A stretch of 20,812 nucleotides of DNA. Source: Porphyridium purpureum (lineage: Eukaryota). Shown in pieces: positions 612-20,259 of the stretch. Both the position numbers and the translations under genes were made by a program. The stretch's first letter is position 1, and every line of letters begins with the position of its first letter. A model generated the notes under the pieces. The model was not told the origin of the DNA. It saw nothing but the letters and a program-made list of their open reading frames with translations, and did no database searches. The stretch lies in assembly GCA_008690995.1 (NCBI GenBank), contig VRMN01000017.1:248001-268812 (forward strand). Direction: 5' to 3'.

Positions 612-3600
612 TTAACTTTCAAGCCGCTTGAGCACTTCGGCACGGTCCGCGTCTGGTAAACCGCCTAGCAGCTCCGAGATTGATGCACGCACGGCGTCCA
701 GTCGCACCGGCGCAAGCAGCGCATCCAGGTTGGCACTGTTTTCGTCAAACCACTTCAGGAACGCGCGGTCATCGAGCCACACGGCATCGCCGCCCACAAG
801 TGCGCGCATGACTTCTGTGGCGGCGAGCCAGTCGAGTGCTGCGTTGACTTTCGCGACGTGCTTGCGCAGCTCTAGTTCACGCAGACGGCGCTTTGTGCGC
901 CAGAAAAAGTACTCGCGGGAGCGCTTCCACTCGACAACGTCACGAATGACGCCCTTGGCCAGCATGCGACCCGAACGGTCGTGCAGATCGGCAAACTCGT
1001 GAGCAATCTGGAGATAGATTGGCAGCAACAGATTTTCGCGCTTGCTGATAGCAGCCTTGATTTCTGCGCGATCCTTTTCTTCCGTAGCATTCTCAAGCCG
1101 CGCGTCAAGCGAAAGCAGCTCAGTGTCCAGGCGATGCATCGCCTTCAGCTGATCGGGCGCACGAAACTTGACCTCGCAGATGCCCGGCGGCTCCAAAATA
1201 CCGCCCCGGCTCTGCGTGTCCGCGTACATCTCCATCATCTTTTCATTAATGGTCGGGTCAACGACCACCCATGCACCGCCGCGAAGCTCCGCATTGGGTG
1301 GCAGATAGATCGAGACAGGCATATCATACTTGCGCAGCGCGTCCACAATCATGGCACCGAACTTGAGCACTTCACCAAACATGTCGCGCGTGCCGCCCGA
1401 GAAACCACGCCAGTTCGCAAAAATCATCAGCGGCAAATTCTCACCGCTGAAGTCTTCGATCGCCTGTGCCGTCTTGAAAGCAGAGTCTGGGTACCATACT
1501 TGCCCGGCTTGAGGTTCAAGCGTCTCACGCGATGCCGCATTTGCTGGATCGGCCGGGATCACGCGATCAAAAGTGCGCGTTTCGACAGCAATCACTCCGT
1601 ACGGAATCCCGCCAAGCCTGGCGCGGCCTACTACTACACTCCTACCCCAGCCAGCTAGGTATTCTTTGAAGCTGCCGGCGTCAAAGAAGCCACGCAACAC
1701 CTTGCCATCCGGCTGCACACTTCCACGCAACATATCACGCACATCATACGTGGCCCCACCGCCTTTGGGCGGTACAAACTCGACATCGCGGCCGATTGGA
1801 TCTGCAGGCGGTCCCGCAAGTATAGGCGGACTGCCGCGTGCTGTCGCCGGCACGTACGCGAGCCAGTCCAAGATCGCAATGACACCTTCCTGGTCGTTCT
1901 CGACGAGTTCGTGCGTCACGCCATTAGGCACCATGATTTGGGGCCCTCCAAGCTGATCCAGTGAAGAGTATACGTCACGCCCTAGAAGCTTGTTCAGCGC
2001 CTGGAAGCCAGTGAGAATGATCGGTCCATTCGTTTGCTGGATGGTGCGCTGGCCCAGTCTCACCAAATAAGCGCCGATGCCAACCGAACGCCCCGTCACG
2101 TAGCTCAGCGTGAAACTTTCGTCGTACGCACGACTAGTCTCTCCAGCGATGAGACCGGAACCCCTCAGGTTCTCGACGCCGATGCCATGTGCAGTGCCAA
2201 TGATATCTTTGAGAACGTAACGCACTTCCTCCCCCTTTTCCCCAGAACCCGCGCATATGCGCCTTTCCGCGATGACTGTACCTTCAGGCAACTCATTGTA
2301 GTCCTTCTCTGACAAATACAAGTACTCGAAGCCAAGTGTTGGGTTCGACTCGTCGCGAAACTGCACTTTGAACATCGGTTTCAGCGACTCGACGAGGCCA
2401 ATACGTGCACCGCTGTTGCTCGACAGATAAATGCGCGGAATGCTACGCACACGGGCATACTCGGACGCTTTGAAAAAGAACTCGTCCTCAGCGACGCCAA
2501 ACGATCCGGCCTGGAATGTTACATCATTGGCAATAACCACGATCTCGCGACCAGATGGATATTCTGGTGTCTTGAGCGTGATGAGCCATGCGACCATACC
2601 AATCTCGTTCTGGCCCGGTGCGCGCTCCACAGGAGACAGCTCCTGCGTTTCTTTATCCAGCACAAGTTCGCGCGTCCTCATGAGCGATCCGAATTGTGGT
2701 GTGACGGGCGGGTTAGTCGAGCGCGTGCGAGCTCGCGACCACTGCTTCACGAGTGCAATTTCAAACAAGGCCATGAAATCGTAAGCGTACGTCGATCCGA
2801 CGCGACGTGCCGCGCGGCGCTTGAGCTGCTCCGGTCCACTCTTCGTGTAATACGGCCGCGACGCTGAAGCATTCAGCTGCTGTCCTTGTGCTATTTGCTG
2901 CTCCTCGTACGGCACATACTGCTCTGTTACGCCAGTGATCGGGTTCTGAATCTCTGCAAAAGCATCGGTCTTAAAGAACGTCCGCTGTGATTGCGCACCC
3001 GCGTAACCGCCTGTCGGCGACGCCCAAAGACGCACTGCCTGCTGGACTTCATTTCCAGTGCTGTCCGCTTCGAATGGCACGCGTATCTTGAGCTCGATGT
3101 TTTCCACACGCAGTCGGATCAGCCGTTCTGCGTACTTGACCATTAACGCTTCCATATCTGCTCGAAGGTGTCGAACCGTGTGCGCCGGAGGCAACTTTTT
3201 CGTGGGTCCGCCGGTCTGTTCAATGTACGCCGCCCCTTGGACAGGCTGCAATACGTTCAAAAACATGTTACAGGTGGCGGTGGGGTCTACACGCGGGTTC
3301 ACGATGCCAGCGTCGAGCTGGTCCATGAGGATGAGCAGCACTTTTTCCATCACGCCAGGTACAGACATATCTGAGTGCGAAATACCTCGCAGAAAGAGGG
3401 ACTGCGTGCGAGGCCGTGTGAGTGCCACTTCTTGGTCGCGCTTCTCGGTGCCTAGCCAAAGTTGAGCGTTTCGCAAGTAAATGGGTAGTCGTTGCAGTTC
3501 AAAGTTCTCACTCAGCCGGCTGAGCTCAAGCAAATAGGGGAAGGACGTGCGCATGTCACGTCGCAAGGCGTCTTCTGCATAGTTTTCGCAGTAGTTGAAC

Positions 3601-6600
3601 GAGAACATGCGCGGTGCTTTTGGCGCCTGGTTCACCAGCAAATTGACCGTGCGAACGCCGGCCTCGTTGCGAAGCTGGAGGTTACGCGCCTGCAACAAAC
3701 CCTCCCAACGCGAAATGAAGCCGCGCTCCTCTTCTGAGCCCTGAGGTAACGCACCAACCGGCCCGTTAAAGCTGATGATTAGCGTACCGATCGGCTCCTG
3801 CTCCTCCTCCTTCTTTTCCTTCGTCCACTCTGCCGCAAAGTCATCAATGATCGAAGGGAGCTTGTCTTGTGCGGTCGCCATCGAATCGCACGCCACCAGT
3901 CGCCCAAGCCGCATGGGCGAGCCCCGTACAATGTCTGCGTACGAAAACCGCCACGTTGCCACAATGCCGGAATCTGTGCGCTCGATGTTCAAAGCGTGGA
4001 TAACATGCGCACGGTAAACGCGGCGAATGTACACTTCAAGTGCAGCGCGGGCGACTTGCGCGTCCATGTCCAGGAAGAGTGAGCAAAGGAGGTCGACCGA
4101 CACACTCAGCGCACGCGACTTGGCAATCTCATCGAGTGCCGTAGAGTCGTTTCCCTTTGACATGATAAACTGGCGCACGTCTGCTAACCGCGAGTTGAAG
4201 TCTGGCGTGCGCAGTGCAGTCAGCAGCTGACCCGCTGCAACTACCACATCTCCATAGTTCTGGCTCTTCAGCTTCGTAAGAGCGGTCAAAGCGGCGTCGA
4301 GCTCCGGAGACAAAAGTGTGTCGTTCGGAAAGCGGTCCGGAAGCGTTCCTAGCTGGCGCAGAAGCGAGAGAACAAGCTCCGCGCGCCGCGGCAGTGTCAG
4401 GTGCGCTGCGATCATTTGGATTGCTGCCGCGTCGCTACCGGCGCTCTTCTTGATTGCCAAAATCGAATCATTGAGCGCGCGTCCGTCAAAATGTTCTTCG
4501 ACGCGAACAAATTCTTCGATGAGCGGCACGAGCCGAGAGATAATGTCGCATGCCGTGACTGGGTCTTCGATCGACTCTTCTGCTGAGCCAGCGTTTGAGT
4601 CCACCAACTGCTGCAACGCCGGGCCAACGCTTCCTTGGAAACCGTCTAGGATCAGCCGGAGCTTGTACGCCGCGATATCCACCGCATAGGTGCCAGCGCC
4701 TGTGCCCGCCGCGCCCATGCCAAGAGCAAGGACGTCACGGCCTTCGGGTTTGCGAATGTTAAGGACACCATCAAAGTCAGACACAGGCGACGCCTTGGAT
4801 GGGTCGTCGAGATCAAGCCGCGCAAGCAGGTCACCTGTCTTGATGATGGAGCCGGCGGCAAGCTCGTGGCGCAGCATGCCGGTCTCGCCTGCTGAGAGCT
4901 GCATAATCATCTTCATGGCCTCGAGCTCCACGTAAGGCTCGCCCTTCTTCACCGCATCACCATCCTGTTTGAGAAAGCGCACCACCTTGCCCGTTACGTC
5001 GCTGCGCAATTCAGATGGGTCAAAGATCGTCGGAATCATTACGGTGCTCCCATTGATAATCATGCGCAATCCGAGGGGCTCCTCTACGCCAGAAACTGAA
5101 TACACATTCTCACCCATGGTGCACAGTAGGCTCTGGTCCGGCTGCTCACGCACTTTGACGTCTAGCGACCACGTGCTCATCGAGCTTCCAGCTTTTGCCG
5201 CGGCCCCACTTGCAGAGCTTCCACTCGCGCTATCAAGCAAATTCAGGCGGAGCACGTCTGGCGCCAATCGGCCCACCTCAAAAGTGAAGCGGAGGCCCAT
5301 GTAGGTGATTTCGACGCTAAACTTGTTCAGAGCGTTCAACTCGGACACGAACGTGCTCTGACCACGCGCAAGCTGCTCAAGGCATGCGAGTTTGCCGCGT
5401 TTGATGGTGTCATGGGCGCGATACACAGCTGCAGCAAGAACGGCAGTGTCGCGATCCAGCTCAAATTTGACCGACTTTTCGCGGATCAGACGATCAAGCC
5501 ATGAGGTATCGATAGTATTCTGCTTGAATTCATCAGTCTCAAGCAGTTGCACCAAGTATTCGACCGGATTGCGAATCTCGCCGCGCGCTTCAAGCTCCTT
5601 GAGTGCCAGCACCAATGCCTTGCGCGCATCCTCACGGTTTGCGCCGCTGGCAAAAACATGCCCAAACTGCGAATCGGCAAACTCGTGAATCCCACCCTGC
5701 GCACCGACTGAAAAGTAGCCCCAGACGTCCGGACTGCTCTGAAATCGCACGCGCTCCACACGACCGCTCGTTGGCTTGAATCCTTCGTCCGGGTTTTCGG
5801 CGGTGATGCGAGCTGCGATGACGTGGCTGCGAAGCGGCTGGTACATTTCGGTCATAAAGTCGATCGGCGAGTCGCCGTATGCATCTGTGCCATCACGTCC
5901 GTACAGTCGTCGGATATCGGGCACGCGCGATAGTGCAATGCCCATCGCTACCTGCAGCTGCGTGGCGGGCATGTTCACGCGTGTGAGGCCCTCCGTCACT
6001 GGATGCTCGACCTGAAGCCGCGGGTTGAGCTCGAGGAAGAAAAACTTTTGCGTGTCCGCATTGTACAGGTACTCCACGGTTCCGGCTCCGCGGTAGCCGA
6101 TCGATTGCGTTAAGCGCTGCGCTGCGCGCTCCATTTCCCGGAAGACCGAAGGCTCCACGATAACGGGCGGTCCCTCTTCGAATATTTTTTGAAAGCGGCG
6201 CTGCGTGGAGCAGTCGCGCCCGTTCAGCGCTACCGCGTTGCCGTACTCATCTCCTACGATCTGGACCTCAATGTGTCTCGCGTTCTTGCACAACTGCATC
6301 ATGAAGATCGGACTCCCGGGTACTTCATTTACCACCTGTTCATAATTCGAGCGCAGCTCTGTTTCGTTCGCAGACATGCGAATGCCCTTGCCACCGCCGC
6401 CTTCGGACGCCTTTGTCATGATCGGGTAGCCGATGCGCTCGGCCACTGCGATCGCCTCGTCAACGTTGTGCACCATCGCTTGCTCAAATATCTCACGCGG
6501 GATCGTGCCGTCCTCTGACAGCTCTGCCGTCAGTCCATCGCCCGACCACGGGATGCTGGGCACGTTGGCCGTTTGTGCCAAAATGTTCGCGCCAATCTTG

Positions 6601-7163
6601 TCGCCCAGCACGGCCATGACGGGACCCGTCGGCCCGATGAACTGGATGCCCAGCTTGGCGAGTGAATTAGGCAATCGAGGGTTCTCAGATGCGTGGCCCC
6701 AGCCCGGCCACACTGCGTCGACGCCCTCGCGCTTCGCCATCGCACAGATCAACTCCACGTTGGCATAGTTGTTACGGTTTGGGCCGCCGGGTACCTCCAC
6801 AAAAGAATCTGCGAGGCGCACAAACTCGGCGTTGGCGTTGAGATCCTCTGGTGTGGCCATCGCAACAAATTCAATCGCTCGCTCCGAGCCTATTTCATAG
6901 TACGCCCACTTGCGCATGGACAGAATGGCCTTGGTGGCCGCCATGCCGTTGTTCGCGATCAGCACTTTCCGAATGACGCGCTTGCCGCCGCGAGCGTCCA
7001 CGTACTCCTGGAGCTGCTTCAGGTTTGTCTGATTCCGCGGCGACGCCGGCGGCGACGCTGATGCCGGTTTTTCCTCCACGCTAGCGCTCATGCGCAACAC
7101 CCCTGGCGCCGCGCCCCGCACGCCCGCCGGCTGATTGCCGCTGGTCCCTGCGCGCTTTCTCAT
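612..7163 (-). CDS. ACC1: Homomeric multidomain acetyl-CoA carboxylase (BC-BCCP-central-CT), plastid-type; true start probably further upstream (7306 or 7336-7342)
   Basis: Uninterrupted 2183-aa ORF. Biotin carboxylase motifs KVLIANNG, WPGWGHASENP, KASEGGGGKGIR, RDCSTQRRFQKIFEEGP and FLELNPRLQVEHPVTE; biotin attachment motif EAMKM (Lys codon 4911-4913); carboxyltransferase motifs ANDVTFQAGSFG, GVENLRGSGLIAGETS, AGQVWYPDSAFKTA and ANWRGFSGG. Confidence 0.97.
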   Translation of the reverse strand: MRKRAGTSGNQPAGVRGAAPGVLRMSASVEEKPASASPPASPRNQTNLKQLQEYVDARGGKRVIRKVLIANNGMAATKAILSMRKWAYYEIGSERAIEFVAMATPEDLNANAEFVRLADSFVEVPGGPNRNNYANVELICAMAKREGVDAVWPGWGHASENPRLPNSLAKLGIQFIGPTGPVMAVLGDKIGANILAQTANVPSIPWSGDGLTAELSEDGTIPREIFEQAMVHNVDEAIAVAERIGYPIMTKASEGGGGKGIRMSANETELRSNYEQVVNEVPGSPIFMMQLCKNARHIEVQIVGDEYGNAVALNGRDCSTQRRFQKIFEEGPPVIVEPSVFREMERAAQRLTQSIGYRGAGTVEYLYNADTQKFFFLELNPRLQVEHPVTEGLTRVNMPATQLQVAMGIALSRVPDIRRLYGRDGTDAYGDSPIDFMTEMYQPLRSHVIAARITAENPDEGFKPTSGRVERVRFQSSPDVWGYFSVGAQGGIHEFADSQFGHVFASGANREDARKALVLALKELEARGEIRNPVEYLVQLLETDEFKQNTIDTSWLDRLIREKSVKFELDRDTAVLAAAVYRAHDTIKRGKLACLEQLARGQSTFVSELNALNKFSVEITYMGLRFTFEVGRLAPDVLRLNLLDSASGSSASGAAAKAGSSMSTWSLDVKVREQPDQSLLCTMGENVYSVSGVEEPLGLRMIINGSTVMIPTIFDPSELRSDVTGKVVRFLKQDGDAVKKGEPYVELEAMKMIMQLSAGETGMLRHELAAGSIIKTGDLLARLDLDDPSKASPVSDFDGVLNIRKPEGRDVLALGMGAAGTGAGTYAVDIAAYKLRLILDGFQGSVGPALQQLVDSNAGSAEESIEDPVTACDIISRLVPLIEEFVRVEEHFDGRALNDSILAIKKSAGSDAAAIQMIAAHLTLPRRAELVLSLLRQLGTLPDRFPNDTLLSPELDAALTALTKLKSQNYGDVVVAAGQLLTALRTPDFNSRLADVRQFIMSKGNDSTALDEIAKSRALSVSVDLLCSLFLDMDAQVARAALEVYIRRVYRAHVIHALNIERTDSGIVATWRFSYADIVRGSPMRLGRLVACDSMATAQDKLPSIIDDFAAEWTKEKKEEEQEPIGTLIISFNGPVGALPQGSEEERGFISRWEGLLQARNLQLRNEAGVRTVNLLVNQAPKAPRMFSFNYCENYAEDALRRDMRTSFPYLLELSRLSENFELQRLPIYLRNAQLWLGTEKRDQEVALTRPRTQSLFLRGISHSDMSVPGVMEKVLLILMDQLDAGIVNPRVDPTATCNMFLNVLQPVQGAAYIEQTGGPTKKLPPAHTVRHLRADMEALMVKYAERLIRLRVENIELKIRVPFEADSTGNEVQQAVRLWASPTGGYAGAQSQRTFFKTDAFAEIQNPITGVTEQYVPYEEQQIAQGQQLNASASRPYYTKSGPEQLKRRAARRVGSTYAYDFMALFEIALVKQWSRARTRSTNPPVTPQFGSLMRTRELVLDKETQELSPVERAPGQNEIGMVAWLITLKTPEYPSGREIVVIANDVTFQAGSFGVAEDEFFFKASEYARVRSIPRIYLSSNSGARIGLVESLKPMFKVQFRDESNPTLGFEYLYLSEKDYNELPEGTVIAERRICAGSGEKGEEVRYVLKDIIGTAHGIGVENLRGSGLIAGETSRAYDESFTLSYVTGRSVGIGAYLVRLGQRTIQQTNGPIILTGFQALNKLLGRDVYSSLDQLGGPQIMVPNGVTHELVENDQEGVIAILDWLAYVPATARGSPPILAGPPADPIGRDVEFVPPKGGGATYDVRDMLRGSVQPDGKVLRGFFDAGSFKEYLAGWGRSVVVGRARLGGIPYGVIAVETRTFDRVIPADPANAASRETLEPQAGQVWYPDSAFKTAQAIEDFSGENLPLMIFANWRGFSGGTRDMFGEVLKFGAMIVDALRKYDMPVSIYLPPNAELRGGAWVVVDPTINEKMMEMYADTQSRGGILEPPGICEVKFRAPDQLKAMHRLDTELLSLDARLENATEEKDRAEIKAAISKRENLLLPIYLQIAHEFADLHDRSGRMLAKGVIRDVVEWKRSREYFFWRTKRRLRELELRKHVAKVNAALDWLAATEVMRALVGGDAVWLDDRAFLKWFDENSANLDALLAPVRLDAVRASISELLGGLPDADRAEVLKRLES

Positions 7164-7413
7164 CCGCCCGCTGGTCGGCGCGGTGAACGACGCGACCCGC
7201 TCCGCCGCCTTTCATCCATCGCGCGCGCTGCCTGGAGCGCGCCGCCGCCACGCAGCATATTGCCACAATACGCTTGCAAGGGCGGCTGGAACTGAAACGC
7301 CAGCATCGCCGCCGCACCACCCTCCCTCCTCCTCATCATCATCTTCTCTCCATCCCCCCCTGTCGGCGGCATCATGCACCGTGGCCCGCACCCCACCTCC
7401 CACCACACACGCT

Positions 7414-7460: not shown

Positions 7461-7672
7461 CCGTGCTCTCTTGCCCTCTCGTCCCCATCTCTCACCCCAC
7501 CCCCTTGCGTGAGACCCGCCTTATCACATCCACAAGCCGAAATCTCCATGTGTTCTGCTTTTGCGTTCTGTTTTCGCGTCGCGCCTCGAGCTCGATCAAG
7601 TACACTTGCATTCAAACTGAACCTTCACATGGCACTTTTATCGTGGAATATAGTCATCCCTCTCTGCCTGCC

Positions 7673-7936
7673 TGATGACGTGATGAGGAGTCATCAAATA
7701 CTTAATGATGACAACTCTCCGTTGGTTGGTGACCGTAATGGTTAACCACAGTAGTATATCATTCGAGTGTGAGAGACGGCCGACGAGTCGGCGCTCTGTC
7801 TCCTTTGGAGGTAAGAGCTAGGTTGTGTTAAGGAGTAAAGTCGTCTTGTTGTGGACCTCTTGCTTCAGCTAGCCACCAGTAGTTTACTATTGGTACACGT
7901 TTGGTATACGCGTGCTTCACGAAGACGCTATCATCA
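7673..7936 (+). repeat. Putative 5' LTR of element A (left end uncertain: TGATGA at 7673, 7681 or 7706)
   Basis: Ends ...TCATCA two bases before the PBS, and the inverted terminus TGATGA occurs at 7673, 7681 and 7706. The second LTR is not in the window, so the start cannot be fixed. Confidence 0.65.
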
Positions 7937-7938
7937 AA

Positions 7939-7954
7939 GGGTTATGAGCCCAGC
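7939..7954 (+). promoter_or_regulatory. Primer-binding site complementary to the anticodon stem-loop region of initiator tRNA-Met (half-tRNA priming)
   Basis: GGGTTATGAGCCCAGC. Its reverse complement GCTGGGCTCATAACCC is the eukaryotic tRNAiMet anticodon-arm sequence, the same PBS type as Drosophila copia and yeast Ty5. Confidence 0.9.
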
Positions 7955-8188
7955 CTTTGCGCTGCGGTGTTTCCCTCATCTTTCTTCTTCTTGCTTGCTT
8001 GACTAACCACCTATTGTGGTAGTGTTTCTATCATTCGGTCATTCCCCAACTCTACCCTCGATCACGCTTTGGAAAAGCGACTGTGGCAGCGCGACAGCCA
8101 AGACGCTGATCGGCGCCGCGAACATCGAGAAGGAAAAAAGAGGCGCTCGAAGCGCAACTGGTGAGCGCGACGCGCCCAGTGTTTGGTC

Positions 8189-11100
8189 ATGGAATATGAC
8201 ATGGATAGGGCTGCGGGTGCTAGTACCCCAGCAACACCGTCGCCGGCACGCGGTGGTGCAAACGCCTCGGCAACCCGCCTTGGCGCGGCAGCAAGTGCGC
8301 GGCGCGAGTCCGCGCGCGAGGAAACGAAACGAGAGATGGCGGCGATGCTGAATGCGGCATACGCCCAAATGCATCGCCAACTCTCGGAGGAATTCGGCGC
8401 CAAGATGGCGACCGAACTGAATACCCGGACGGCGATTGTTCAGAGTGAGCTCGCCGAGCTGCGGAGCGAGAACGTTCGTCTGAGGGCGCTTCGCGATGGA
8501 TCCGGTGGAAGTGGCGCTTTGCCGAGCTGCATGCGCCCTGCGGCCATGCTGTACTATGGCGGCGAGCGATCCACTGCGGCCATTATGACCTGGACGGCAG
8601 CAGCGCGTTCGCGGGTGTACAACCCGGCGCGCTCGGATTGGCGGTCGCAGGGCCGTCTTTGGACGGAAACCGAGGAAGAGGAAGCAGTGTCGACGCTTTC
8701 GACTCACCTCTTCGGATTGGCGCAACTCTGGTACCAGGCATTACAACCTGATCAGAGACCCACCTCGGTAGAAGAGTTTCTGCTCGCGCTTCAGCGGCGC
8801 TTCGAGCCCAAAGAAACAGAAAATGACGTGCGGGATGAACTGCAAAAGATGAAGAAGGGTGCAATGAGTGTCCAAGATTTTGAAGCTGCATTTAGTGAAG
8901 TTTGTCTGCGTATACCAAATTTGGTAGACAAAGATAAACTTCACTATTTTACAGAATCTCTTGACACTTCTATTGCCACTCACGTAGCGCTTCACTTCCC
9001 TCCCACCTATGACGACGCTTTGCGTTTGGCTTTAGTTGCCGACAAAGTCATATTTAAGCGTGGTCGAGACCAGCAGCCCATCACAGCACGCACGTACCCG
9101 TCAGCCATGCAGCCTGCATACCACCCCCAGATGAACTATAACCAGCATGGTCCGGTGCCAATGGACTTGGGTACCGCCAGCGGCAGCAGCGCACGGGTGC
9201 ACGGACGAGGATACAACGGCTTCCAGCGGGATCGCTCGAACGAGTATCAACAGCAACAGCATGACCAATGGTCACCAGCTGGACCGCAGCGGAACCTGCG
9301 TGCGAATCATGCAGAGCGGTACGCGCAGAGCCGCGCGGACGGACGAGACGGCGGCTGGCGAGAGCCGAGCACGCATGGTTGGAACCGTGGTGGCGGCCAG
9401 AACGACGCGCGTGGGCGCGGACAGAAGCGTGGCGCACCGCAACGAGGCGGTGCCAGTAGACCACGACCGCGACAGACGCCGAAGTCGCAACAAGATGGCA
9501 AGAAGAGTAATCAGCGTGGGCGCTATTACTGCCATCGGTGCTCCGTGTGGGGGCCAGCGACGCACAACTGTGCAGACAGGCGCGATGATCGCGATGCCAA
9601 TCTCGGCGGAGCCGAGTTGATGACCGCCAGTGCGGGCAAAGGGTTGCTCAAGGTGAATGCTTGGGTGAACGGCCGGGCGATGAAAGCAGTCATCGATACC
9701 GGCGCAACGCACACCTTTCTGAGCGAGAGCGCATGCGCGATGGTGCGAGTGCGCACAAATAGCACCGCGAATGCCTTGACCATTCGATTGGCAGACGGCA
9801 CGCAGTGCATGTCTCGCGGGCGCGCGACAGTGAATCTGGCGGTGCTGGATTCAGCAGAGAAGCAGCAGGACGTGGTTGTGTACAATGGCCACAATGACCT
9901 CGTGATCGGTCTCGATTGGCTTCGAACCAACCGCTTCGAAATGATCATCGGCGGTCACAGTCTTGGCACAGCCGAGGCTGAGCATGTAGAGCAGGACCAT
10001 TGCGTTCTGCACATGCCGTCGCGCGACACGTGCGGAATATGCAGCGCGGCAAAGCTGCGGCGCGCGCGTGCTGTGAGGCGAGACGACTCGGTTGGCAAAG
10101 AGCGCGGACGAGCGCGCGAGTTCAACGACGTGGTGTCGATTGACATTGTGGATCCCGGACTGGCAGCCGTGGATGGCAGCAGGTGGCTGCTCACTCACCT
10201 CGACGAAGCCACTGGGTGGTTCTCAGCAATTGGGCTGGCGGACAAGTCCGCCGCTGAGTGCATTCGCGGGTTGACGGAGCTGCAGCGCGGACGTGGTGAT
10301 TGGCCACGAGTGTTGCGGTGTGACGAGGGCCGCGAGTTCATGGGCGAATTCGACGGATTCATCGCGGAAAAGGGCGTGAAGAAAGTCACTGGTGTACCTT
10401 ACCGGGCGAACACGCACGCGACGCATGAACGCAAGCATGCAGACTTGAACGGAGCAGTGCGAGCACTGCTGATGCAGTCTGGCTTGCCGACCGCGTGGTA
10501 TCCGTTCGCCGCCGCCTACTTTTGCCTGGCCAGAAACCTCGCCTGGCGCGGCGCAAAGCAGGAGCAGACCAGCTTCGAGCAACGGCTCGGTCTAACATGG
10601 CACAAGCCCATCCCTGCATTCGGGAGCGGCATTCTCATATACGATGAGAGCCGCGGCAAATTTGAGCCGAAAGGCTTGCCTGCAATCGTCGTTGGGTTCA
10701 CGGCACCGAGGCCGAATGACCCGCGGCAGCCCATAAACCTGCTCGCCCTGCCCATTGCCGACTTGCGGCCATCTGCGATCAGGAAGGTCGGCGAATGGAA
10801 GCCACTTCCCGACAAGTGGCCATTGCGACGTTTGGCACTGCGGCCTCCGGATGAGGCCATTACGACGGGTGATCAATGGTCGCGAGCACGCGACAATGCA
10901 CCGGACCGTGCATTCTGCACACAGTGCAAGAAAATAGTCGGTGGGAGCACCGAATGCGAGAAATGCATTTTGGGTCCGGCGCCCAGCCGACGTCACACTG
11001 GTGACGGCGCATGCAGGCAAATGCACTGCCAGTGCTACCGAGACGAGCACGGAAAGCTCGCGTCACGAGCACAGTATCGGCGCATTGAGCTGCCGTGGAG

Positions 11101-13096
11101 TCCGGCCGAGGACATTGCCATATCCGAAGGCATTGCCCGTTTTGGTGAGGACTGGCTTGCCATCGCGGGTAGGCCAGCATTCTTCATGCGCGGCCGCAAA
11201 CCAGCCGGCTTACGCGCGCGCGCAGCGGAACTGGGTGTGCTTCCAGTGCACGCAGCAGCAGCGAGCGACGCGACGCGGAACGACGCGACGCGAGCAGAGA
11301 GTAGCAGCGACGCAATGTATACAAGCGCGGCGACAGGGGGACCAGAGGACGAAGCGGCAGGTCTGGGGGTGGCAGAAGTTGTGGCCACAGCGGTGGCGAT
11401 GGCCACGCCCGCCGGCCGCCATGCATTAGCATCCGAGCTTCGTGCGCTCACCAGCACCGGCGCTCTGCCTTTCCGCCGCACGATGGACAAGGCAGTGGCG
11501 GCGCGCGTTCCGAACGCGCAATTCGTTAAGTTGAAGCTCCTCTTCAACAAGAAGAATTCAGAAATGCCTTCGTCGTTCCACAAGACGAAGTGCCGCATCG
11601 TCGCGCAAGGATGCGTCGTGCTGGACGCCGATGGGCGTCGCGCGCGCGAAGAACCGTACCCTTTTGATCGCCCACCAGGTTTGCTGGCGATCCGCGCCTC
11701 GATGAGCATGGCGCTCATGCTCCATGGACCATCCGCCGACGGCGCCTTCTTCGACGTAACGTGTGCCTACCCCAGTGCACCATTGGGCGGCCGTCCGACA
11801 TTCGGATATCTGCGCGACCTGGTCCCGGTCGTGAAGGGTCTAGTCAGCGAAGCCGACTACAGAAAGATGGCCGCATGCAGCGAGCCTGTCGTGGAGCTAC
11901 CGCAGGCTCTGTACGGAATGAAAAGGAGCGGCAGCGACTTCAGCCACGACGCTCGCGAGCGTGTCCGGCGGCTTGGATGGCAAGAATCCAACGCGGACAA
12001 GAACCAGTACTGGCGCCGCGACGCGAACGGCAGCATGCTCACGCTGAGCATGTACGTCGACGATGGCGCACTCTTCGGCAATGCGGATGCGGTACGAGTG
12101 GCGGTCAAACAACTGAAGACCGTCTTCAGAATCGACCAGAAGGTCGAATACATTGCAGACTCGGCGCGTACGCGCCCTATCAAGTATCTCGGCATGCACA
12201 TCTATCGCGACGGCGGCCGATGGATACTGGATTCGGGGGTGTACGCCACCCATGTGGCGAACGGCCACACCGCGGACAACTTGCGCGTGCGCAGCACGCC
12301 ACTCAGCGAGCGGGTCGACGACAATGGACCCGGCGGGCGCGCGTGCCCGACAAACAAGCGAACAGTGATTGGCCAACTGCTGTGGCTCAGCCGAACCACG
12401 CGAGCAGACATCGCTTATGCCACGGCGCATGTGGCGCGTTATGTCGACCGGTGGGGGCCAAGCGCGGATCGCGCGCTCGACGAGATCGTCGGGTATCTGA
12501 AGAAGCATGCGGACGTCTGTCTGCAATACGACATACCCGCGACAGGAAGTCGCGACGTTCGGTTGCACGCGTGGGCTGATGCCGACTTCTCGGCACCGTC
12601 ATCCACGAGCGGCGCCGTGCTCTTCATATCGAATGGCAGATGCCGACACCTTGTAGACTGGACCAGTCGGCGCCAGCGGCGCGTCAGCACCTCGACGACC
12701 GAGGCTGAGTTGGTAGCGCTGCACGACGCAGCGCAAGGCAGCGTGTTCCCAGTGGCGACACTGGCGGAAGAACTTTTGAGGCGCTGGCCTCCGATCGTTG
12801 TGCGGTGCGACAACGAGTCGACTTTGCGCGCGGTGGAGCGCGGCCACAGTGACCGGCTACTGCATGCGCCAAAGATGCAGCGCATCTCTCTGAGATGGTT
12901 GCACGAGATAGCAGCGGACGGACTCGTCAAGTTCGTCTATGTCGCTACGCGCGACAACATCGCTGACGGCTTGACGAAGCCGATTGCCACCGACGTGTTT
13001 CGCGGCCATGCATGTTACCAATGCTGTGCCTTTATTCTCTCTCTCTTCTTCTTCTTTCTTACCTCTTCTGTCTCCGAGCAAGACCTGACCGGCTAG
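8189..13096 (+). CDS. Gag-Pol polyprotein of element A: Gag, Zn-knuckle-like motif, aspartic protease, integrase, Cys-rich module, Myb-like domain, RT, RNase H; last 27 aa are read-through into LTR B
   Basis: First ATG at 8189. Protease DTGATH (9695); integrase HCVLHMP..CGIC (9998) and D10142, D10322, E10427; copia-type RT KCRIVAQG, FDVTCAY, QALYGMKRSG, YVDD (12053), YLGM; copia-type RNase H WADADF, WTSRRQ..VSTSTTEAE, CDNES, NIADGLTKP. Confidence 0.92.
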   Translation: MEYDMDRAAGASTPATPSPARGGANASATRLGAAASARRESAREETKREMAAMLNAAYAQMHRQLSEEFGAKMATELNTRTAIVQSELAELRSENVRLRALRDGSGGSGALPSCMRPAAMLYYGGERSTAAIMTWTAAARSRVYNPARSDWRSQGRLWTETEEEEAVSTLSTHLFGLAQLWYQALQPDQRPTSVEEFLLALQRRFEPKETENDVRDELQKMKKGAMSVQDFEAAFSEVCLRIPNLVDKDKLHYFTESLDTSIATHVALHFPPTYDDALRLALVADKVIFKRGRDQQPITARTYPSAMQPAYHPQMNYNQHGPVPMDLGTASGSSARVHGRGYNGFQRDRSNEYQQQQHDQWSPAGPQRNLRANHAERYAQSRADGRDGGWREPSTHGWNRGGGQNDARGRGQKRGAPQRGGASRPRPRQTPKSQQDGKKSNQRGRYYCHRCSVWGPATHNCADRRDDRDANLGGAELMTASAGKGLLKVNAWVNGRAMKAVIDTGATHTFLSESACAMVRVRTNSTANALTIRLADGTQCMSRGRATVNLAVLDSAEKQQDVVVYNGHNDLVIGLDWLRTNRFEMIIGGHSLGTAEAEHVEQDHCVLHMPSRDTCGICSAAKLRRARAVRRDDSVGKERGRAREFNDVVSIDIVDPGLAAVDGSRWLLTHLDEATGWFSAIGLADKSAAECIRGLTELQRGRGDWPRVLRCDEGREFMGEFDGFIAEKGVKKVTGVPYRANTHATHERKHADLNGAVRALLMQSGLPTAWYPFAAAYFCLARNLAWRGAKQEQTSFEQRLGLTWHKPIPAFGSGILIYDESRGKFEPKGLPAIVVGFTAPRPNDPRQPINLLALPIADLRPSAIRKVGEWKPLPDKWPLRRLALRPPDEAITTGDQWSRARDNAPDRAFCTQCKKIVGGSTECEKCILGPAPSRRHTGDGACRQMHCQCYRDEHGKLASRAQYRRIELPWSPAEDIAISEGIARFGEDWLAIAGRPAFFMRGRKPAGLRARAAELGVLPVHAAAASDATRNDATRAESSSDAMYTSAATGGPEDEAAGLGVAEVVATAVAMATPAGRHALASELRALTSTGALPFRRTMDKAVAARVPNAQFVKLKLLFNKKNSEMPSSFHKTKCRIVAQGCVVLDADGRRAREEPYPFDRPPGLLAIRASMSMALMLHGPSADGAFFDVTCAYPSAPLGGRPTFGYLRDLVPVVKGLVSEADYRKMAACSEPVVELPQALYGMKRSGSDFSHDARERVRRLGWQESNADKNQYWRRDANGSMLTLSMYVDDGALFGNADAVRVAVKQLKTVFRIDQKVEYIADSARTRPIKYLGMHIYRDGGRWILDSGVYATHVANGHTADNLRVRSTPLSERVDDNGPGGRACPTNKRTVIGQLLWLSRTTRADIAYATAHVARYVDRWGPSADRALDEIVGYLKKHADVCLQYDIPATGSRDVRLHAWADADFSAPSSTSGAVLFISNGRCRHLVDWTSRRQRRVSTSTTEAELVALHDAAQGSVFPVATLAEELLRRWPPIVVRCDNESTLRAVERGHSDRLLHAPKMQRISLRWLHEIAADGLVKFVYVATRDNIADGLTKPIATDVFRGHACYQCCAFILSLFFFFLTSSVSEQDLTG

Positions 13097-13316
13097 CCCG
13101 GGCAGGCGCGTCGCCTTTTTATACCCTTACTTCCGCCAGGGACAGCAAGGCGCCACGAGAAATGACAATGCAAATCATTGGCATTTCTGCGCGCGTCTAG
13201 AAGGTTCTGGAACCTCTAGAAGCTTCTAGAAACGGTTAAACGGTCTACCGGTTTAGCGGCTTACCGGTTTCGGACTAACCGAACCGTTCTAGGTGACTGG
13301 GGTCGAACGGATAACA
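13013..13316 (-). repeat. 3' LTR of element B (304 bp)
   Basis: Termini TGTTACC... and ...GGATAACA, directly adjacent PPT, minus-strand TATAAAA at 13117-13123, and the same layout as the LTRs of element C. Partner LTR not in the window. Confidence 0.82.
13199..13232. promoter_or_regulatory. Two perfect tripartite heat-shock elements (nGAAnnTTCnnGAAn) in U3 of LTR B
   Basis: aGAAggTTCtgGAAc at 13199-13213 and aGAAgcTTCtaGAAa at 13218-13232, about 75-110 bp upstream of the LTR TATA box. Confidence 0.75.
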
Positions 13317-13330
13317 TCTCCCCCCCTCTT
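13317..13330 (-). other. Polypurine tract of element B
   Basis: Minus strand AAGAGGGGGGGAGA immediately precedes the TGTTA start of the LTR. Confidence 0.88.
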
Positions 13331-13435
13331 GACTCGACGTCTCGGCGAGACTCCAAACTAAGTTGCATTCTTGGCTCGAGGAACCCGCGCTCCGGGAGAA
13401 AACCTCTGCCTAGCAAACTTCTCACAATTCCCAAG

Positions 13436-13902
13436 TCATTCAGAGTCAGACTCCTCGATAATTTTCAACAAGTCTGGCTCAGAATCGGACGCCGGCATTT
13501 CGTCGGGTACTTCTTCATCATTTTCCCCTACCATGTAGTCTTCGCGTCCATAGTATGGCTTCAGATGCTGGGTCGGAAAAACATCATGACAAGCCACACC
13601 CTCGGGCAAAATCACTCGGTAAGCATGCGAGCTTACCTTCTCAATGACAGGCACCGGACCAAGAAACTTTGGTGCCGCCAAATCACTCTTGTTCGGCCGC
13701 AGTTGCGGCGCTGTGACCAACACTTGATCACCAACTTGAAACTCCCGGGCATCCTTGCGTCGATCGAAGAACTTCTGCATTCTCCCTTGGGCTTCGATCA
13801 AATTGTCGCGGACTTCTTCATGGACTTTGCACAGGCGAAACCAGTGCTCCGCCACGTCCTTCGTCTGCCCGTCGCGCGCAGGCCTCCACCCTTCGCTCGG
13901 TG
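13436..13902 (-). pseudogene. C-terminal part of the gypsy integrase of element B, disrupted by element D
   Basis: EVRDNLIEAQGRMQKFFDRR...FQVGDQVLV...APKFLGPVPVIEKVSSHAYRVILP...HDVFPTQHLKPY is the GPY/F-SH3-like integrase tail. The listed ORF's N-terminal 43 aa (14032-13903) are antisense LTR D sequence. Confidence 0.85.
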
Positions 13903-14182
13903 TGCTATGCTGTACACCCCATGCACTGTACACATGTAGCACCTGTACTCCATAGTACAGTCCACCCTCCAAAACCCCATCCAAACCCACCACTGAGTTA
14001 GATCCAGGGCTTTGCGGCAGTATATAATCCACGCCGCCGTGCGGCCCGAGCTAAACAAAAAGTAAAGGAGGTATCGAAGTGCGAGGAGAGGTTGGTGTGC
14101 CGTTGGTGTCGGGGTTCGATCCGGGCGGGTGCCTGTAGGTGAGAGAGAGGGGTTGTAGTGGCTGCGGGTGTAGTACACAGCA
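13903..14182 (+). repeat. Putative 5' LTR of element D (280 bp)
   Basis: TG...CA with an imperfect 17-nt terminal inverted repeat (TGCTATGCTGTACACCC versus the reverse complement of the end, TGCTGTGTACTACACCC, 13/17). TATATAA at 14021-14027. Begins where the integrase-like sequence of B stops. Confidence 0.7.
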
Positions 14183-14323
14183 TAATTCTAGAATTAGCGT
14201 TGCCCCATTCTTGAGTAATTTCTTGTGGGAGCGCGCGGGCCGGTCTGGTTGGTGGTCGGGTGGCCCGGAACCAGGGCGACGTGGGGGAGAGGTGCCAGGT
14301 CGGGTGGCTCTGGTGTCTCGTTT

Positions 14324-14615
14324 TGTCACAAACGGAGCTTCTTTTCTTTACTTCTTCTTCTCTCCTCCTCTACCTCCTCTCTTCTTTCTAGCCTTTTTTC
14401 TTCGTTCGGCTGCCGCTCGCTCTGTTTTATACCCGCCTTCCGGCGCCGCAACGGCTTGCCCGGCGGGTTCAGCCCTCGGAATAACCCAATCCCGCGGCCC
14501 TCAACATAACTCAGCTGTACCACACGGTACACCCACAGCTGTACTTTCAGTACACTTAGGGACTGTACCTCTGCGTACTCGCTGTACTGAGACCTGCATC
14601 AGGTCGCTCGCGACA
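14324..14615 (-). repeat. 3' LTR of element C (292 bp)
   Basis: TGTC...GACA; direct repeat of 20260-20551 with a single difference (T14387 vs C20323). Confidence 0.97.
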
Positions 14616-14630
14616 TCCCACACTTCCCGC
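14616..14630 (-). other. Polypurine tract of element C (imperfect)
   Basis: Minus strand GCGGGAAGTGTGGGA directly precedes the 3' LTR. Confidence 0.7.
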
Positions 14631-15136
14631 TTATCCACAGCGACCATTGCGATAGCGTGTTCTAAGCCCACGCGCCGCATGCATAGCAGCCGTTCCCGTG
14701 CCGCTCAACAGGTTCAAGCACAATGAGCTGAGATCGAGCGGACGAAGTACAGTGTAAGCTGACAGGGTACAGTGCCAGCAACAGGGCCAAAAAAATAAGG
14801 TGGCCGGTGCCGCTCACAAGTGACGCCCACTGACAAGACCCCGTACAGGCTGCCATCCCCCTCCCCCGCTAACCTTAAAGGAAAGGTGCGCTGTTACGGC
14901 TCTGCCCAATGTCACCCCGGGGAATTACCCTAGCCACGGATCCCCAGCATTTCACAGGGGCAGTTTTCTCTAATCAGGGAGTGTCTAAGATCCTCTTCAA
15001 TTCTCGTTTGCCAAACTGCCGAAATTTAGAGTATATACACCCCCAAATATGGACTCAGGTACAGTATTACTGTACTTCACTGTACACAGACTGTACTTCA
15101 TTTTGTTCTTTATCATTCGTTCTACCGTCTTGCTGC

Positions 15137-15277
15137 GGGCACGGCTCCTTCTTTACCGTCCAGCCATGGACACAGCTCCTTCTTTAATGTCCAGCAACGG
15201 ACACAGCTCCTTCTTTATCGTCCAGCAACGGACCCAGCTCCTTCTTTACCGTCCAGCCACGGACACTCCATCTTTAT
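15137..15277. repeat. 31-bp tandem repeat, about 4.5 copies, in the 3' UTR of element C
   Basis: Units start at 15137, 15168, 15199, 15230 and 15261 (partial); approximate consensus GGACACAGCTCCTTCTTTACCGTCCAGCMAC. Confidence 0.92.
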
Positions 15278-15325
15278 TCGAACATTTTTTTTTTGAGAGC
15301 AGCGACGGCCGATAGCCACCCAGCG

Positions 15326-18300
15326 TCAAACACCTTCTGCCATGTCTCGGTACGCGGCTACCAGCATGGGCGGGAGCGTCTTCTCAGCCTCCCATGTGTC
15401 GCCTCGCTTCCCCATACCCCGCCATCTCACCTTGTACTCGCGGCCTCCACCCGCAGCCCGATCTTCCACAATTGCCTCCACCACCCAACTTGCATCTCCT
15501 CCAACGAACACGTTCGTGCCGGCCATGTCTACCACGTCCGGGTCTGCCTTGTGCAAGCGGTTCACATGCACGAGCTGGCCATGGAGCTCTGCGTCATCTC
15601 GGCCGTTTGCGCTGACCACGACTGCGTGAACCCCGTTCCGCTTTGTGATGCGGAAAGGTCCGAGCCACGGCTTTGTCAGCTTGCGACCCTGCCTCGTACT
15701 TGGGCACCACACGTATACGATGTCGCCTTCGGCAAACGTTTCCTTGTTCCGATGAATGTTTCTGTCATAGTACCTTGCAAACCTCTCGGCGTTCTCCGAC
15801 ATCTTATTCCCGGCGAGCCGATAGGCGCGCGCCAGCTGTGCGGAGATATCTTGCGGTTGCTGGCCCCCTTCAACCGCTCGCGGTCCGGCCATGCTTGCCC
15901 AGTCCTTGGCTGGCGACCCAAACATCATTTCGTACGGCGAGAAGCCGGTGGCTGCGTGGCGCGACGTGTTGTACGCGTAGGTTACAACGGACAGCCACCT
16001 ATCCCAGTCGCGCGAGCTTGCACTGACGTACGCCGACAGCATCTTGCACAGGGTCGCATTGAAGCGCTCCACCCTTCCGTTCGTCTGCGGGTGGTAGGCT
16101 GTCGTCATGAGCCTCCGGATTCCGAGTCTGGCGCAAAGCGACGTGATCACCTCACCGACAAAGTTTGAGCCCCGGTCGGACAAGATGGACTCCGGCGGGC
16201 CAAAGACAGTCAACCACGTCTGCAGGAAACTCCGCGCCACGGTCTCTGCCTTCTCGTCCGGGAGCGCCACGGCAACCGCCCATCGCGTCCAAGCATCCAT
16301 CATGACGAGCACCTTGATATTTCCCGTTCGCGTCTCCGGACTGATGGTGAGGATGTCCATGCCTACAATTTCAAAGCGTCTGGACGCCGAGTACTGCACC
16401 ATCGCCGCGTTCCGGCGGGGTGGTGGTGCCTTGCGCGCTATGCACTCGTGGCAGCACCGAACGAACTTCCGAACGTCTTCTGTCCACCCGGGCCACCACC
16501 ACTGCGCGTCGGCTATCCTCGCCGCCGTCCTCGCCGTCCCCATGTGAGCCGACAGCGGGGCTCCGTGATAGACATTCAGAACTGCCGACACAAGGGCGTC
16601 AGGGACCACCCGCCTGGGCATGTCTTTCAGCAACGCAAACACAATCCCGTCTTCGTCCACGATATACTCAGGGAAGGAGTACTTTGACGCGGGGCCTGAT
16701 AGGTTCTTGAGCTCAGCGCAGATCTGCTCGTCCTCTGCGTACGCTGCTCTGAGCTCGTCGTCCGTGGGCACAGCGTATAGCGCCCCACTGTCTTGCGTGT
16801 CCCGTACCTCCCGGACCTCTTCTTCCGTGCCAGTGTCCAGAGGAGTACGCGATAGCGCATCGGCCACGATATTCGCTGCGCCTGGCTTGTGCTTCACGTC
16901 AAACTCGAAATCTTGCACGCGCATGATCCACCTTGCCGTCCGACCCCGTGGCTCTTTCTGGCGAAGCAGCCACAGCAGCGCCGAGTGATCCGTCACGAGA
17001 ATGAACTTCTTGCCGAACAGATAGTGCCTGAACTTTTCCATGGATAGTATGGCACCCAAGCACTCTTGCTCCGTGACGCTGTAGTTCAGCTCTGCGCCTC
17101 GGAATGCCCTTGAGTAAAAGGCCACCGGGCGCCGCTGGTCCCCTTGAAGCAAGACCGCGCCAATGCCCACCTGGCTCGCGTCGACTTCAAGAACCATCTC
17201 GGCGGCCGGATTGAATGCAACCAGGACTGCGCTACCGTCGTCCATCGGATCACCTAGCGCATGGCGTAGGTCTATGAACGCGGCGCGCTGGTCGTCCCCG
17301 AATCTGCTCGCCCACTCTGCGCCACCAGCCGTCTTCCGGTGGAAGCCACCTTTCTTGTCCGTCAATCCGAGCCCAGTCAGCGCCCGCCTCAGCGGGAGGG
17401 CGCGCTCCTCGAAGTTCGGTATGAAGTTACGAAACCAGCCGACCAGTCCCAGGAACCGCTGCAGGTCCTTCGCTTCTTCTGGCTCTGGCCACTCCAGGAT
17501 TGCCCGCGTCTTATCTACCCCAGGCCGCAAACCTTGCGGGCCAATGCGATGGCCCAGAAACTGTACTTCTGCCAGAGCAATCTTGCACTTGCGGGCCGAC
17601 AGTGTAAGCCCCGACGCCGCGAACCTTCGCAAGATCTGACGAAGTCCTTCCACATGTTCCTCGAAGGTCTCATGTCCCACTGTCAGATCGTCAATGTAGA
17701 TCTGCGCGTGTGCATGGCGCATAGGGCCCAAAATCCGGTTGTTGAGTCGCTGGAAAGTTGGCGGACTATTGCAGCAGCCCTGCGGCAGACGCGTGTATTC
17801 AAATAGCCCCTCACGTGTGATCATGGCAGTCAAATGCATGCTTTCTGGCGCAAGGGGCACCTGGAAAAACCCGTCCTTGAGATCGAGAGCGCTCTTCCAT
17901 CGGCGCCTCGAAAGCCAGTCGAGCATCTCCCCAACGTCTGGGATTGGGTACCTGTCCTTGATTGTGATTGCATTGAGCGGGCGAAAGTCGGTAGTCATCC
18001 GATACGATCCATCTGGTTTCCGGATCAGTACGTTGGCTGCTGCACACTCCGACGTGCTCGGCTGCAGCACTCCCTTAGCGACAAGGGCTTCGACCAGGCT
18101 GCGCTCGGCCTCGTTCTCGGCCTCTGAGCGCCTGCGCACTTTGGCCACCAGAGGGCGCTGGCCCGGTTCGACAGTGATGGTGTGTTCCACCAGGTCCGTC
18201 AATCCCATGGACGGCCTGAACAGCACCCACGCCTCAGCTAGGACGTCGCCGACTCGTTTGCGCTGCTCGGGCTCGAGATGCCCAAGCTCGATGGCCGCGG

Positions 18301-18934: not shown

Positions 18935-20202
18935 GGTCCGTGGCTCAAGCCACCGTCCGAATACGGCGCGCGTGGTGCTCCACCTTGGCCCGCGGGGCGA
19001 TGCACTCCCCCATCGGCCCTTGGCCATCCATTGCGGCAATCCCTCTTCAAGTGTCCAAGTTCGCCGCACTGCCAGCACTGCGGCTGTCCGGGCAGAGCAG
19101 TCGGAAGGGCTTGGCGCTTGGCCTGTGGCCCAAAGCTCTCAACCTGGTATACATCCTCTGCGTACAGGCCGTAGTCACGACCGCGCTTCTGGATCGTCGT
19201 GCCCGGGACCTCGCCTATGCGGCCCACTCTCTCGCGGCCAAGCGGGCGTTGCTGGCCAAACGGAGGAAGCGAGCGACTCGGTAGACCCTTCAAACCATCT
19301 TCACCGACGTGGTCTACCAGAGCTGAGCGCAGCTTGGTGAACGAGACGCTCACGCCGATCATGCGGACCGTGTTCTTCAAGAACGCGGAGTCCATGGCTT
19401 CGATCAACACGTCCTTCTTGTCCTCGTCGTCCATCTTGAGCCCGTCAGCCTTGGTCTCCAGGTCGTTCAGAAAGACACTCAAGCTGGCTTTCCCCGGTTG
19501 GAACTTCATGCGGCGGAGCTCGGCTTTCAAAGCCTGGCGGTGCTCGACATTGAAAAACATGGACTCCAGTGCCTTCCACACACGGTTCGCTGCGCCGGGC
19601 CCTGCCGCATCGACATCTTTGATCACGGCTTGGTACCTTGACACCGCGGGCCCACCAAAGCAAGCGCTGATGTGCTCCGCGACATTGTCCCTTGCGAGGC
19701 CAAGTGTGTCCGCGTGCGACTCCCAGCAGGTCCGCGACGCGAAGAAATGAGCGTCACCTGGGGCCTTGATAAGAACTTGAGCACTGCGGACCGCCTCGCG
19801 AAAGGTTGCTGCGAGCTTCAACTGCTCCTCCCAGAACGACCGATCCGTGGTACGGCCCGAGGTCTGCGCCGAGTTGCGGCTGTGCGCCTGGGCCTCCAGT
19901 TCAGCAACGCGAGCGCGAAGGGCCATCACTTCGGCTCCGCCCGGTGCAGCTAGGTCTCCAACCGGGACAACGGACTCTGCGTCGGCTGCGGCTTCCAGGT
20001 GACCTGGCGTCCCCTGCTCATTGTCGACAGCTTCACCCTGGTGCTCCACGACAGGCCCGTCTTCTGGCGCTGGGCCCCCGGCACGAGCGGCCCCTGCTTC
20101 GATGATCGCGGATCCGCTGCGTGGCTCCCCAAGTCCTGCCACAACTGCTGCCTCGCGAGGCCCACCTGCCTCTCCAACTCCTGCCCCACGCCCACGCGCC
20201 AT
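18904..20202 (-). CDS. gag: Gag of element C
   Basis: First ATG at 20202, 58 nt from the 5' LTR. Coiled coil LRARVAELEAQ, capsid-like helical region, and canonical Zn knuckle CWQCGELGHLKRDC. Confidence 0.92.
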   Translation of the reverse strand: MARGRGAGVGEAGGPREAAVVAGLGEPRSGSAIIEAGAARAGGPAPEDGPVVEHQGEAVDNEQGTPGHLEAAADAESVVPVGDLAAPGGAEVMALRARVAELEAQAHSRNSAQTSGRTTDRSFWEEQLKLAATFREAVRSAQVLIKAPGDAHFFASRTCWESHADTLGLARDNVAEHISACFGGPAVSRYQAVIKDVDAAGPGAANRVWKALESMFFNVEHRQALKAELRRMKFQPGKASLSVFLNDLETKADGLKMDDEDKKDVLIEAMDSAFLKNTVRMIGVSVSFTKLRSALVDHVGEDGLKGLPSRSLPPFGQQRPLGRERVGRIGEVPGTTIQKRGRDYGLYAEDVYQVESFGPQAKRQALPTALPGQPQCWQCGELGHLKRDCRNGWPRADGGVHRPAGQGGAPRAPYSDGGLSHGPKNGQWGSKQ

Positions 20203-20259
20203 CCTATCCCACTCCCAACCCCACACTTCCTCGCTCCCACACGACCAATTTGCAAATTA

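Follow-up and report, generated by a model that had tools for sequence, protein, structure and literature searches.

A Ty3/gypsy-type capsid and protease joined in frame to Ty1/copia-type integrase, reverse transcriptase and RNase H in a multi-family LTR retrotransposon lineage of Porphyridium purpureum

Ty1/copia and Ty3/gypsy elements are commonly regarded as the oldest two lineages of LTR retrotransposons, each evolving on its own, and elements are filed by reverse transcriptase (RT) and domain order. Here, we confirm a real, multi-family chimera across these superfamilies in Porphyridium purpureum, in which a Ty3/gypsy-type capsid and protease (PR) precede a Ty1/copia-type integrase (IN), RT and RNase H within one reading frame. 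The copy described here is truncated and lies in a window of 20,812 nucleotides (the whole stretch of DNA that was analyzed); the chimera itself is a whole radiated lineage and not a single element. Very probably, it is a multi-copy LTR retrotransposon that goes back to an ancestral copia element which swapped its gag and PR for those of a gypsy element related to the P. purpureum family P0146, and the best reading of this swap is that it is old. Feature coordinates are compiled in Table 1.

Table 1. Features of the chimeric element and of the LTR that interrupts it, in window coordinates.
Feature	Position	Strand	Basis or remark
5' LTR, 298 bp, 5'-CG...AG-3' instead of TG...CA	7642..7939	+	contig ends
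PBS GGTTATGAGCCCAGC, abuts 5' LTR, copia half-tRNA type	7940..7954	+	likeness to ordinary copia loci
gag-pol ORF, element-derived part	8189..13012	+	single ORF; aa 1-1608
Capsid, Ty3/gypsy type, aa 115-292	8531..9064	+	Pfam, PDB profile matches, tree, model pLDDT 94.8
Atypical Cys/His knuckle CX2CX7HXC	9530..9571	+	read from sequence
Aspartic protease, gypsy/ILG type, aa 484-588, DTG ... VIGLDW	9638..9952	+	Pfam, motif, tree, profile-profile
Switch region: P0146 (gypsy) similarity stops at aa 581, P0148 (copia) similarity begins at aa 603	9932..9994	+	
Copia-type integrase, HHCC finger, D652, D712, E747	9995..10843	+	PDB match, profile scores
Myb/SANT-like module between IN and RT, after Cys-rich stretch	11093..11170	+	Pfam PF00249
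Copia-type reverse transcriptase, LPQALYG, YVDD	11411..12523	+	Pfam, trees
Copia-type RNase H: ADADF, TTEAE, CDN, NIADGLTK; interrupted right behind core	12551..13012	+	
LTR of interrupting gypsy element, TGTTA...TAACA	13013..13316	-	separate from chimera

A first-pass annotation, made from the sequence alone, had described one stop-free ORF, and the frame is indeed open on the plus strand from 8189 until the stop codon at 13094-13096, a length of 1635 aa. Only the part up to 13012 belongs to the element: behind this position, a gypsy LTR interrupts the copy and supplies the last 27 codons; intact copies of the chimera comprise 1682 aa. Pfam searches of the ORF returned Retrotrans_gag and Ty3_capsid (aa 162-283), gag-asp_proteas (aa 490-579), rve (aa 646-739), and RVT_2 (aa 1231-1363; E 4e-6), the last below the curated cut-off in the window copy and above it in the relatives P0019, P0020, and P0021. 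No match on the ORF was obtained at E 0.1 for copia Gag (PF14223), copia protease (PF22936), or the chromodomain (PF00385). The Gag and protease motifs quoted in the first-pass annotation could all be located, i.e., YYGGER at 8552, AQLWYQ at 8720, GPVPMDLG at 9149 (the PMDLG motif, 9149-9172, downstream of the capsid), the DTGA core from 9665, and DLVIGLDWL at 9896. Judged by its letters, the Cys/His knuckle is likely the nucleocapsid; a canonical CCHC is found in the sister families P0018, P0125, and P0133. The Myb/SANT-like module matched PF00249 with E 1.6e-4, below the Pfam curated cut-off, recurs in P0019 and P0021, and may serve as a targeting module that guides insertion. By module, GC content showed a modest dip in the capsid region, the coding sequence of which also contains a 27-bp inverted repeat (85%; 8893-8946). 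Coverage of the ORF in RNA run X22 was about 0-6 reads deep, too thin for judging expression.

The gypsy type of the front half is supported by several lines of evidence. A capsid profile built from three families matched Ty3, dArc1, dArc2, and PEG10 in the PDB and did not match the Copia capsid at E 10. One ordinary copia Gag, used as a control, found the Copia capsid in the PDB library at 2e-15, but the second of the two controls (L003) missed it as well, so that the absent Copia match alone proves little; a single-sequence capsid search of the PDB gave no matches. Profile-profile comparison gave the capsid a value of 99.9% with gypsy capsids and of 4.7% with 17 ordinary copia Gags; the protease matched gypsy proteases at E 2e-26, those of copia at 1.5e-6, and those of the sister copia elements at 1.2e-5. 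The gypsy scores are inflated by reference sets gathered with lineage-derived queries. Gypsy profiles thus beat copia profiles for both domains, in line with the gypsy assignment of the first-pass annotation, and the opposite ranking, which it had named as speaking against its reading, did not occur. On a gypsy capsid profile, three lineage Gags scored 90-120 bits, whereas all six sister-copia Gags tested stayed at or below 0.5 bits; these six showed no match to the gypsy profile and no convincing match to the ordinary copia profile either. In the sister copia clade, the Gags of P0148, P0137, P0142, P0144, P0193, and P0240 fit both profiles poorly and are possibly a third capsid type, going by their sequences. 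Another member of this clade, P0154, ends in an AAA_28 NTPase domain.

At the level of profiles, a copia-type Gag capsid was not found in the chimera; the fold-level search discriminated weakly. An AlphaFold capsid model from 41 sequences, mostly gypsy-like homologues, reached the pLDDT given in Table 1, and the single-sequence fold (pLDDT 38) was unusable. The fold search ranked dArc, Ty3, and PNMA2 above Copia by small margins and is therefore taken as mild support, the TM values (dArc 0.63-0.64, Copia 0.56, Ty3 0.45) barely separating the capsid types.

For the protease, a motif of ILG type or a close variant was present in 13 of 13 lineage proteases, whereas 12 of 12 sister-copia proteases were of LLS type. 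According to section 12 of Llorens et al. 2009 (PMC2774666), LLS marks copia proteases and ILG those of other families; the chimera carries ILG in place of the C-terminal LLS motif of the copia (Pol_BBD-type) protease. The first-pass annotation had additionally relied on DTG versus DSG as a superfamily marker. This part did not hold, as the copia GalEa proteases read DTG(C/A) in the text available for PMC5445492, while the gypsy type of the protease itself is upheld by the ILG marker and the profiles. The PR tree placed the lineage together with gypsy elements behind a 100-supported branch, and the protease data rejected the grouping seen for RT (p-AU 0.001; 29 of 70 rows). All trees mentioned here are quick searches on chosen subsets, based on 100-365 columns and with SH-aLRT support only. 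A Gag-PR-IN profile was run against 1.84 billion proteins. Of its 150 best matches, 39 paired a single RT type with a capsid or protease resembling that of the lineage. The RT was of gypsy type in 34 of them and of copia type in five, these being P0229, P0271 (probably a fused model), and three members of the lineage. The remaining matches lacked an RT (58), lacked a capsid or protease match (51), or carried both RTs (2); the source organism was looked up for 10 of the 150.

Behind the protease, the element is of copia type. Its integrase fitted a profile built from 14 sister-copia integrases with 226 bits, compared with 70 for the ordinary copia and 53 for the gypsy profile, and the best PDB match of this domain was 7z0h_W, listed as 'Integrase', which we take to be the Ty1 integrase. 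In the RT tree, a branch with a support of 100 has the lineage on its copia side, where it joins metagenomic elements in a deep clade (98); in the IN+RT tree, six families form one group (88) nested among sister copia elements (92, 94). Grouping the lineage RT with that of P0146 was rejected (p 1e-27). By the RVT_2 match, tree, and topology test, the RT is not of gypsy type; together with the position of IN upstream of RT-RNase H, this bears out the copia assignment of domain order and RT made in the first-pass annotation. A gypsy gag and protease combined with IN before RT is also the layout of the Gmr1 clade as given in section 12 of PMC2774666, and the element might accordingly be a wholly gypsy one with IN moved ahead of RT. 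We consider this next to impossible, since the RT matches RVT_2 and not RVT_1, the RT tree refutes it, and IN, RNase H, and the primer binding site (PBS) are of copia type as well.

The two halves meet in a narrow region. In the chimera protein (P0001), aa 115-340 and 486-581 match only the gypsy polyprotein P0146, and aa 603-949 and 1073-1605 match only the copia polyprotein P0148; as these similarities are complementary, the 3' switch can be placed in the interval listed in Table 1. The same split was repeated in four of four other families tested, the one exception being a weak IN match between P0018 and P0146. The protein belongs to a 90% cluster of 16 sequences, and all 14 other members listed are named Porphyridium purpureum; 12 of these 14 span PR to IN and 10 span capsid to RT. 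One sequence, P0004, is not an independent insertion because its truncation is identical to that of the window copy. Single contigs bridged the PR/IN join in two of three DNA runs (X2, 9837-10450; X3, 9199-11748), and in X1 two overlapping contigs covered it among the matches listed. Furthermore, capsid, PR, IN, and copia RT occur in one protein in five further P. purpureum families (P0017, P0018, P0021, P0125, and P0281), so that six families in all, including that of the window, show the full layout; P0020 and P0129 are Pol-only relatives. RT-RNase H identity is 55% for P0017, 50% for P0018, and 34% for P0021.

These data bear on whether the join is an artefact: the assembly might be wrong, recombination might have created the join just once, or a gene model might extend over gypsy and copia insertions nested in one another. 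Several LTR elements are nested in the window, and fused models do occur among the matches (P0055 and P0271, both set aside as probable fused gene models). However, the join lies in a single frame and shows no remnant of a second protease or of an LTR, most cluster members and the X2 and X3 contigs run across it, and it is common to six families with RT-RNase H identities down to the value for P0021. Copy number and the independent families refute the artefact, which we regard as having virtually no chance of being correct; a single-copy junction without read support, the other result named in advance as damaging, was not what we found, the join being multi-copy and bridged by independent contigs. 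Locus scans of metagenome and viral contigs with the family alignment confirmed no chimeric member. A further scan of metagenomes yielded 15 loci with identities of 22-30%, of which the five with a readable protease motif were ordinary copia elements and were used as controls, and a feature search of protein clusters (Atlas) returned mostly Retrotrans_gag clusters, which serve as a lead only.

Contig ends and the letters themselves agree on LTR termini that differ from the usual TG...CA: contigs start or leave at 7642 in four of four runs (X1, X3, X7, and X11), and leave at 7939/7940 into unlike flanks in three of the four (X3, X7, and X11). No paired LTRs of the chimera were found within the window, from which the 3' LTR is missing, and no target site duplication was seen for the window copy. 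A contig of run X1 joins 13012 to an LTR via 265 letters and a purine tract, which gives a length of about 5.9 kb for the whole element; a purine tract also precedes the 3' LTR in other copies. There, a TG stands between the purine tract and the CG of the LTR; it may either belong to the tract or be two letters that are trimmed off at integration. From 7641, the flank runs on into different sequence in X3 and X11; we therefore read the site as empty in these two runs and the insertion of the window copy as recent and polymorphic.

The PBS differs at one of 15 letters from the site in the ordinary copia loci L006 and L009, in line with the copia-type PBS proposed in the first-pass annotation, and presumably pairs with the anticodon arm of initiator tRNA-Met. 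It matters for the direction of the exchange. Taken by itself, the domain pattern is symmetric, and a gypsy element that kept its LTRs and gag-PR and gained IN-RT-RNase H from copia would look the same; the LTR termini are not diagnostic, and among plant non-canonical LTRs only the first T is described as invariable in the accessible part of the LTR_retriever preprint (10.1101/137141). The PBS, however, lies 5' of the gypsy module and is of copia type, so that the cis element agrees with the copia enzymes, which makes this reverse polarity very improbable. Because of this copia PBS, and because sister copia elements, in addition, retain their LLS copia protease, we favor a copia host and a gypsy donor, the polarity already suggested by the first-pass annotation when it inferred that a copia lineage had taken up a gypsy particle module.

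P0146 is a complete gypsy polyprotein from P. purpureum with five members and gave the top capsid score, 114 bits (next 64), of 30 RT-confirmed gypsies with a capsid match. In capsid trees, it groups with the capsids of the core families at 94-96. Identity of the lineage to P0146 is 25-40% for the capsid versus 13-17% for the RT (40% versus 17% for P0281), and as the value for the capsid of the copy in the window is no more than 25-26%, P0146 is not itself the donor but related to it. The best match of the P0146 capsid among 27 other RT-confirmed gypsies is 32%, below the 40% to the lineage. All 36 of the gypsy-gypsy pairs had an RT more strongly conserved than the capsid, whereas capsid exceeded RT in 51 of 54 gypsy-lineage pairs.

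The main competitor of a swap is ancestral retention, in which the earliest copia branch kept a gypsy-like capsid and an ILG protease, and the other copia elements changed theirs. With RT alone, the lineage as the deepest copia branch, with lineage and gypsy as one side, was not rejected (p-AU 0.55; 21 of 58 rows), and retention is therefore permitted by this marker; moreover, the lineage capsids may form one clade without P0146 (p 0.73). IN+RT, on the other hand, rejected the deepest position, if marginally (p 0.034; 21 rows), and nested the lineage within sister copia. The comparison of capsid and RT across pairs is the stronger argument against retention, the lineage capsids being closer to that of P0146, from the same host, than the latter is to other gypsies and grouping with it in the trees, at RT identities of 13-17%. 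We thus judge retention unlikely and return to the swap. A single origin was not rejected by the capsid test just cited or by RT (p 0.41). In free trees, capsid and protease of the P0021 family stand apart from those of the core, and multiple captures were not demonstrated in the capsid and RT topology tests. The capsid test of gypsy monophyly (p 0.036) was confounded by Gag-only rows of uncertain type and carries no weight here.

An ancestral copia element exchanging gag and PR with a gypsy element would have required a crossover between PBS and gag and another between PR and IN. These might have come about through co-packaging and template switching in a shared particle, or through recombination between nested elements. 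In intact copies, by established LTR biology, the LTR transcript would yield one Gag-Pol polyprotein; the gypsy-type capsid would package the transcript, and the gypsy-type protease, which would have arrived with its own Gag, would cleave Gag and must also free the copia IN and RT. RT would then be primed at the copia PBS, and IN would join the CG...AG ends.

The window itself is a nest of LTR elements from 7642 to 20812, the kind of setting that the recombination route supposes. The chimera is cut at 13012 by the minus-strand gypsy element. Near 13901, the latter is broken in turn by an element on the plus strand (LTR at about 13901-14182), and this one contains an intact gypsy (14324-20551; LTRs 99% identical; site empty in runs X2 and X3). 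The intact gypsy (coding region 15329-20256, minus strand) encodes gag and pol in two different frames and carries a chromodomain at the C-terminus; a zinc knuckle is the sole Pfam match of its Gag, which is not of the chimera's donor type. Tandem 31-bp repeats lie at 15127-15281, between the end of its pol and the 3' LTR. In RNA run X22, the 3' end of the minus-strand gypsy (13088-14035) was covered 250-1100 deep, far above the chimera ORF, although the reads may stem from other copies. On the other side, an uninterrupted ORF for a multi-domain acetyl-CoA carboxylase occupies 612-7211 on the minus strand (2199 aa from stop to stop), and the chimera inserted (7641/7642) about 480-550 bp upstream of its possible start codons, head to head. 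The polymorphic insertion could alter the expression of lipid synthesis between strains.

If the swap is correct, capsid and protease can be exchanged between copia and gypsy elements without loss of the packaging, cleavage, and priming of a foreign polymerase, and a recently mobile lineage of several families would be a natural system for studying how Gag, protease specificity, and RNA packaging are coupled to Pol. Annotation based on RT or on TG...CA ends would miss such elements. In the copia polyproteins P0229 and P0243, a gypsy-type Gag is combined with a copia protease, and in P0229 with a chromodomain as well. This different combination suggests from the sequences at hand that cross-superfamily captures recur; as both proteins contain PF03732 alongside the copia protease, PF03732 alone is not diagnostic of a gypsy-type element. 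A bolder proposal, which we put forward tentatively and consider rather doubtful as a whole, is that gag-protease is an exchangeable particle module across LTR superfamilies. The copia lineage of this alga would have taken it more than once from the gypsy pool and radiated into at least six families that still move, have ends other than TG/CA, and use the Myb-like module for targeting, as one of several independent eukaryotic captures hidden by RT-only classification.

We found no description of such a chimera in the literature covered, including PMC5718144 in its accessible part and a search for Porphyridium copia elements, a coverage that is thin for subscription papers and lies outside Repbase, GyDB, and REXdb. 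With Ty1/copia (Pseudoviridae; Drosophila copia is half-tRNA-primed) and the deep clade of P0148, P0150, and P0152, the chimera has in common the PR-IN-RT-RNase H order, the single ORF, the type of RT, RNase H, and IN, and a PBS (GGTTATG.GCCC) abutting the LTR; it differs in the gypsy-type capsid and protease (ILG, not LLS), the CG...AG LTR, and the Myb-like module after IN. With Ty3/gypsy (Metaviridae: the Ty3, dArc, and PEG10 capsids; P0146), it shares the capsid, the PMxLG motif, and the ILG protease, whereas RT, RNase H, IN, domain order, and PBS are copia-type. The Gmr1 clade likewise has gypsy gag-PR followed by IN before RT (PMC2774666, section 12; PMC3587641), but is presented in these sections as a gypsy element with a moved IN, whereas the enzymes of the chimera themselves are copia. 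The diatom copia element CoDi-A resembles the chimera in carrying a gypsy-typical module, a chromodomain, on a copia element; the chimera has no chromodomain, and the portion of PMC2774666 at hand does not mention a gypsy gag or protease for CoDi-A. GalEa copia elements, including CoPorcru1/2 of Porphyridium, occur in the same alga and have a DTG protease signature (PMC3587641 and PMC5445492, in their accessible parts). As a group, they are set apart here by the GalEa PBS TGGTAGCAGAGC right after the LTR (PMC5445492), which is absent from the chimera. Troyka, in the available text of PMC12440569, is an LTR element that begins with CG like the chimera, but its ends are CG...CG, its domains follow the gypsy order, and its RT is not of copia type. 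The chimera is therefore a copia element by its RT that fails the copia Gag and protease markers, and it is distinct from Gmr1, GalEa, CoDi-A, and Troyka.
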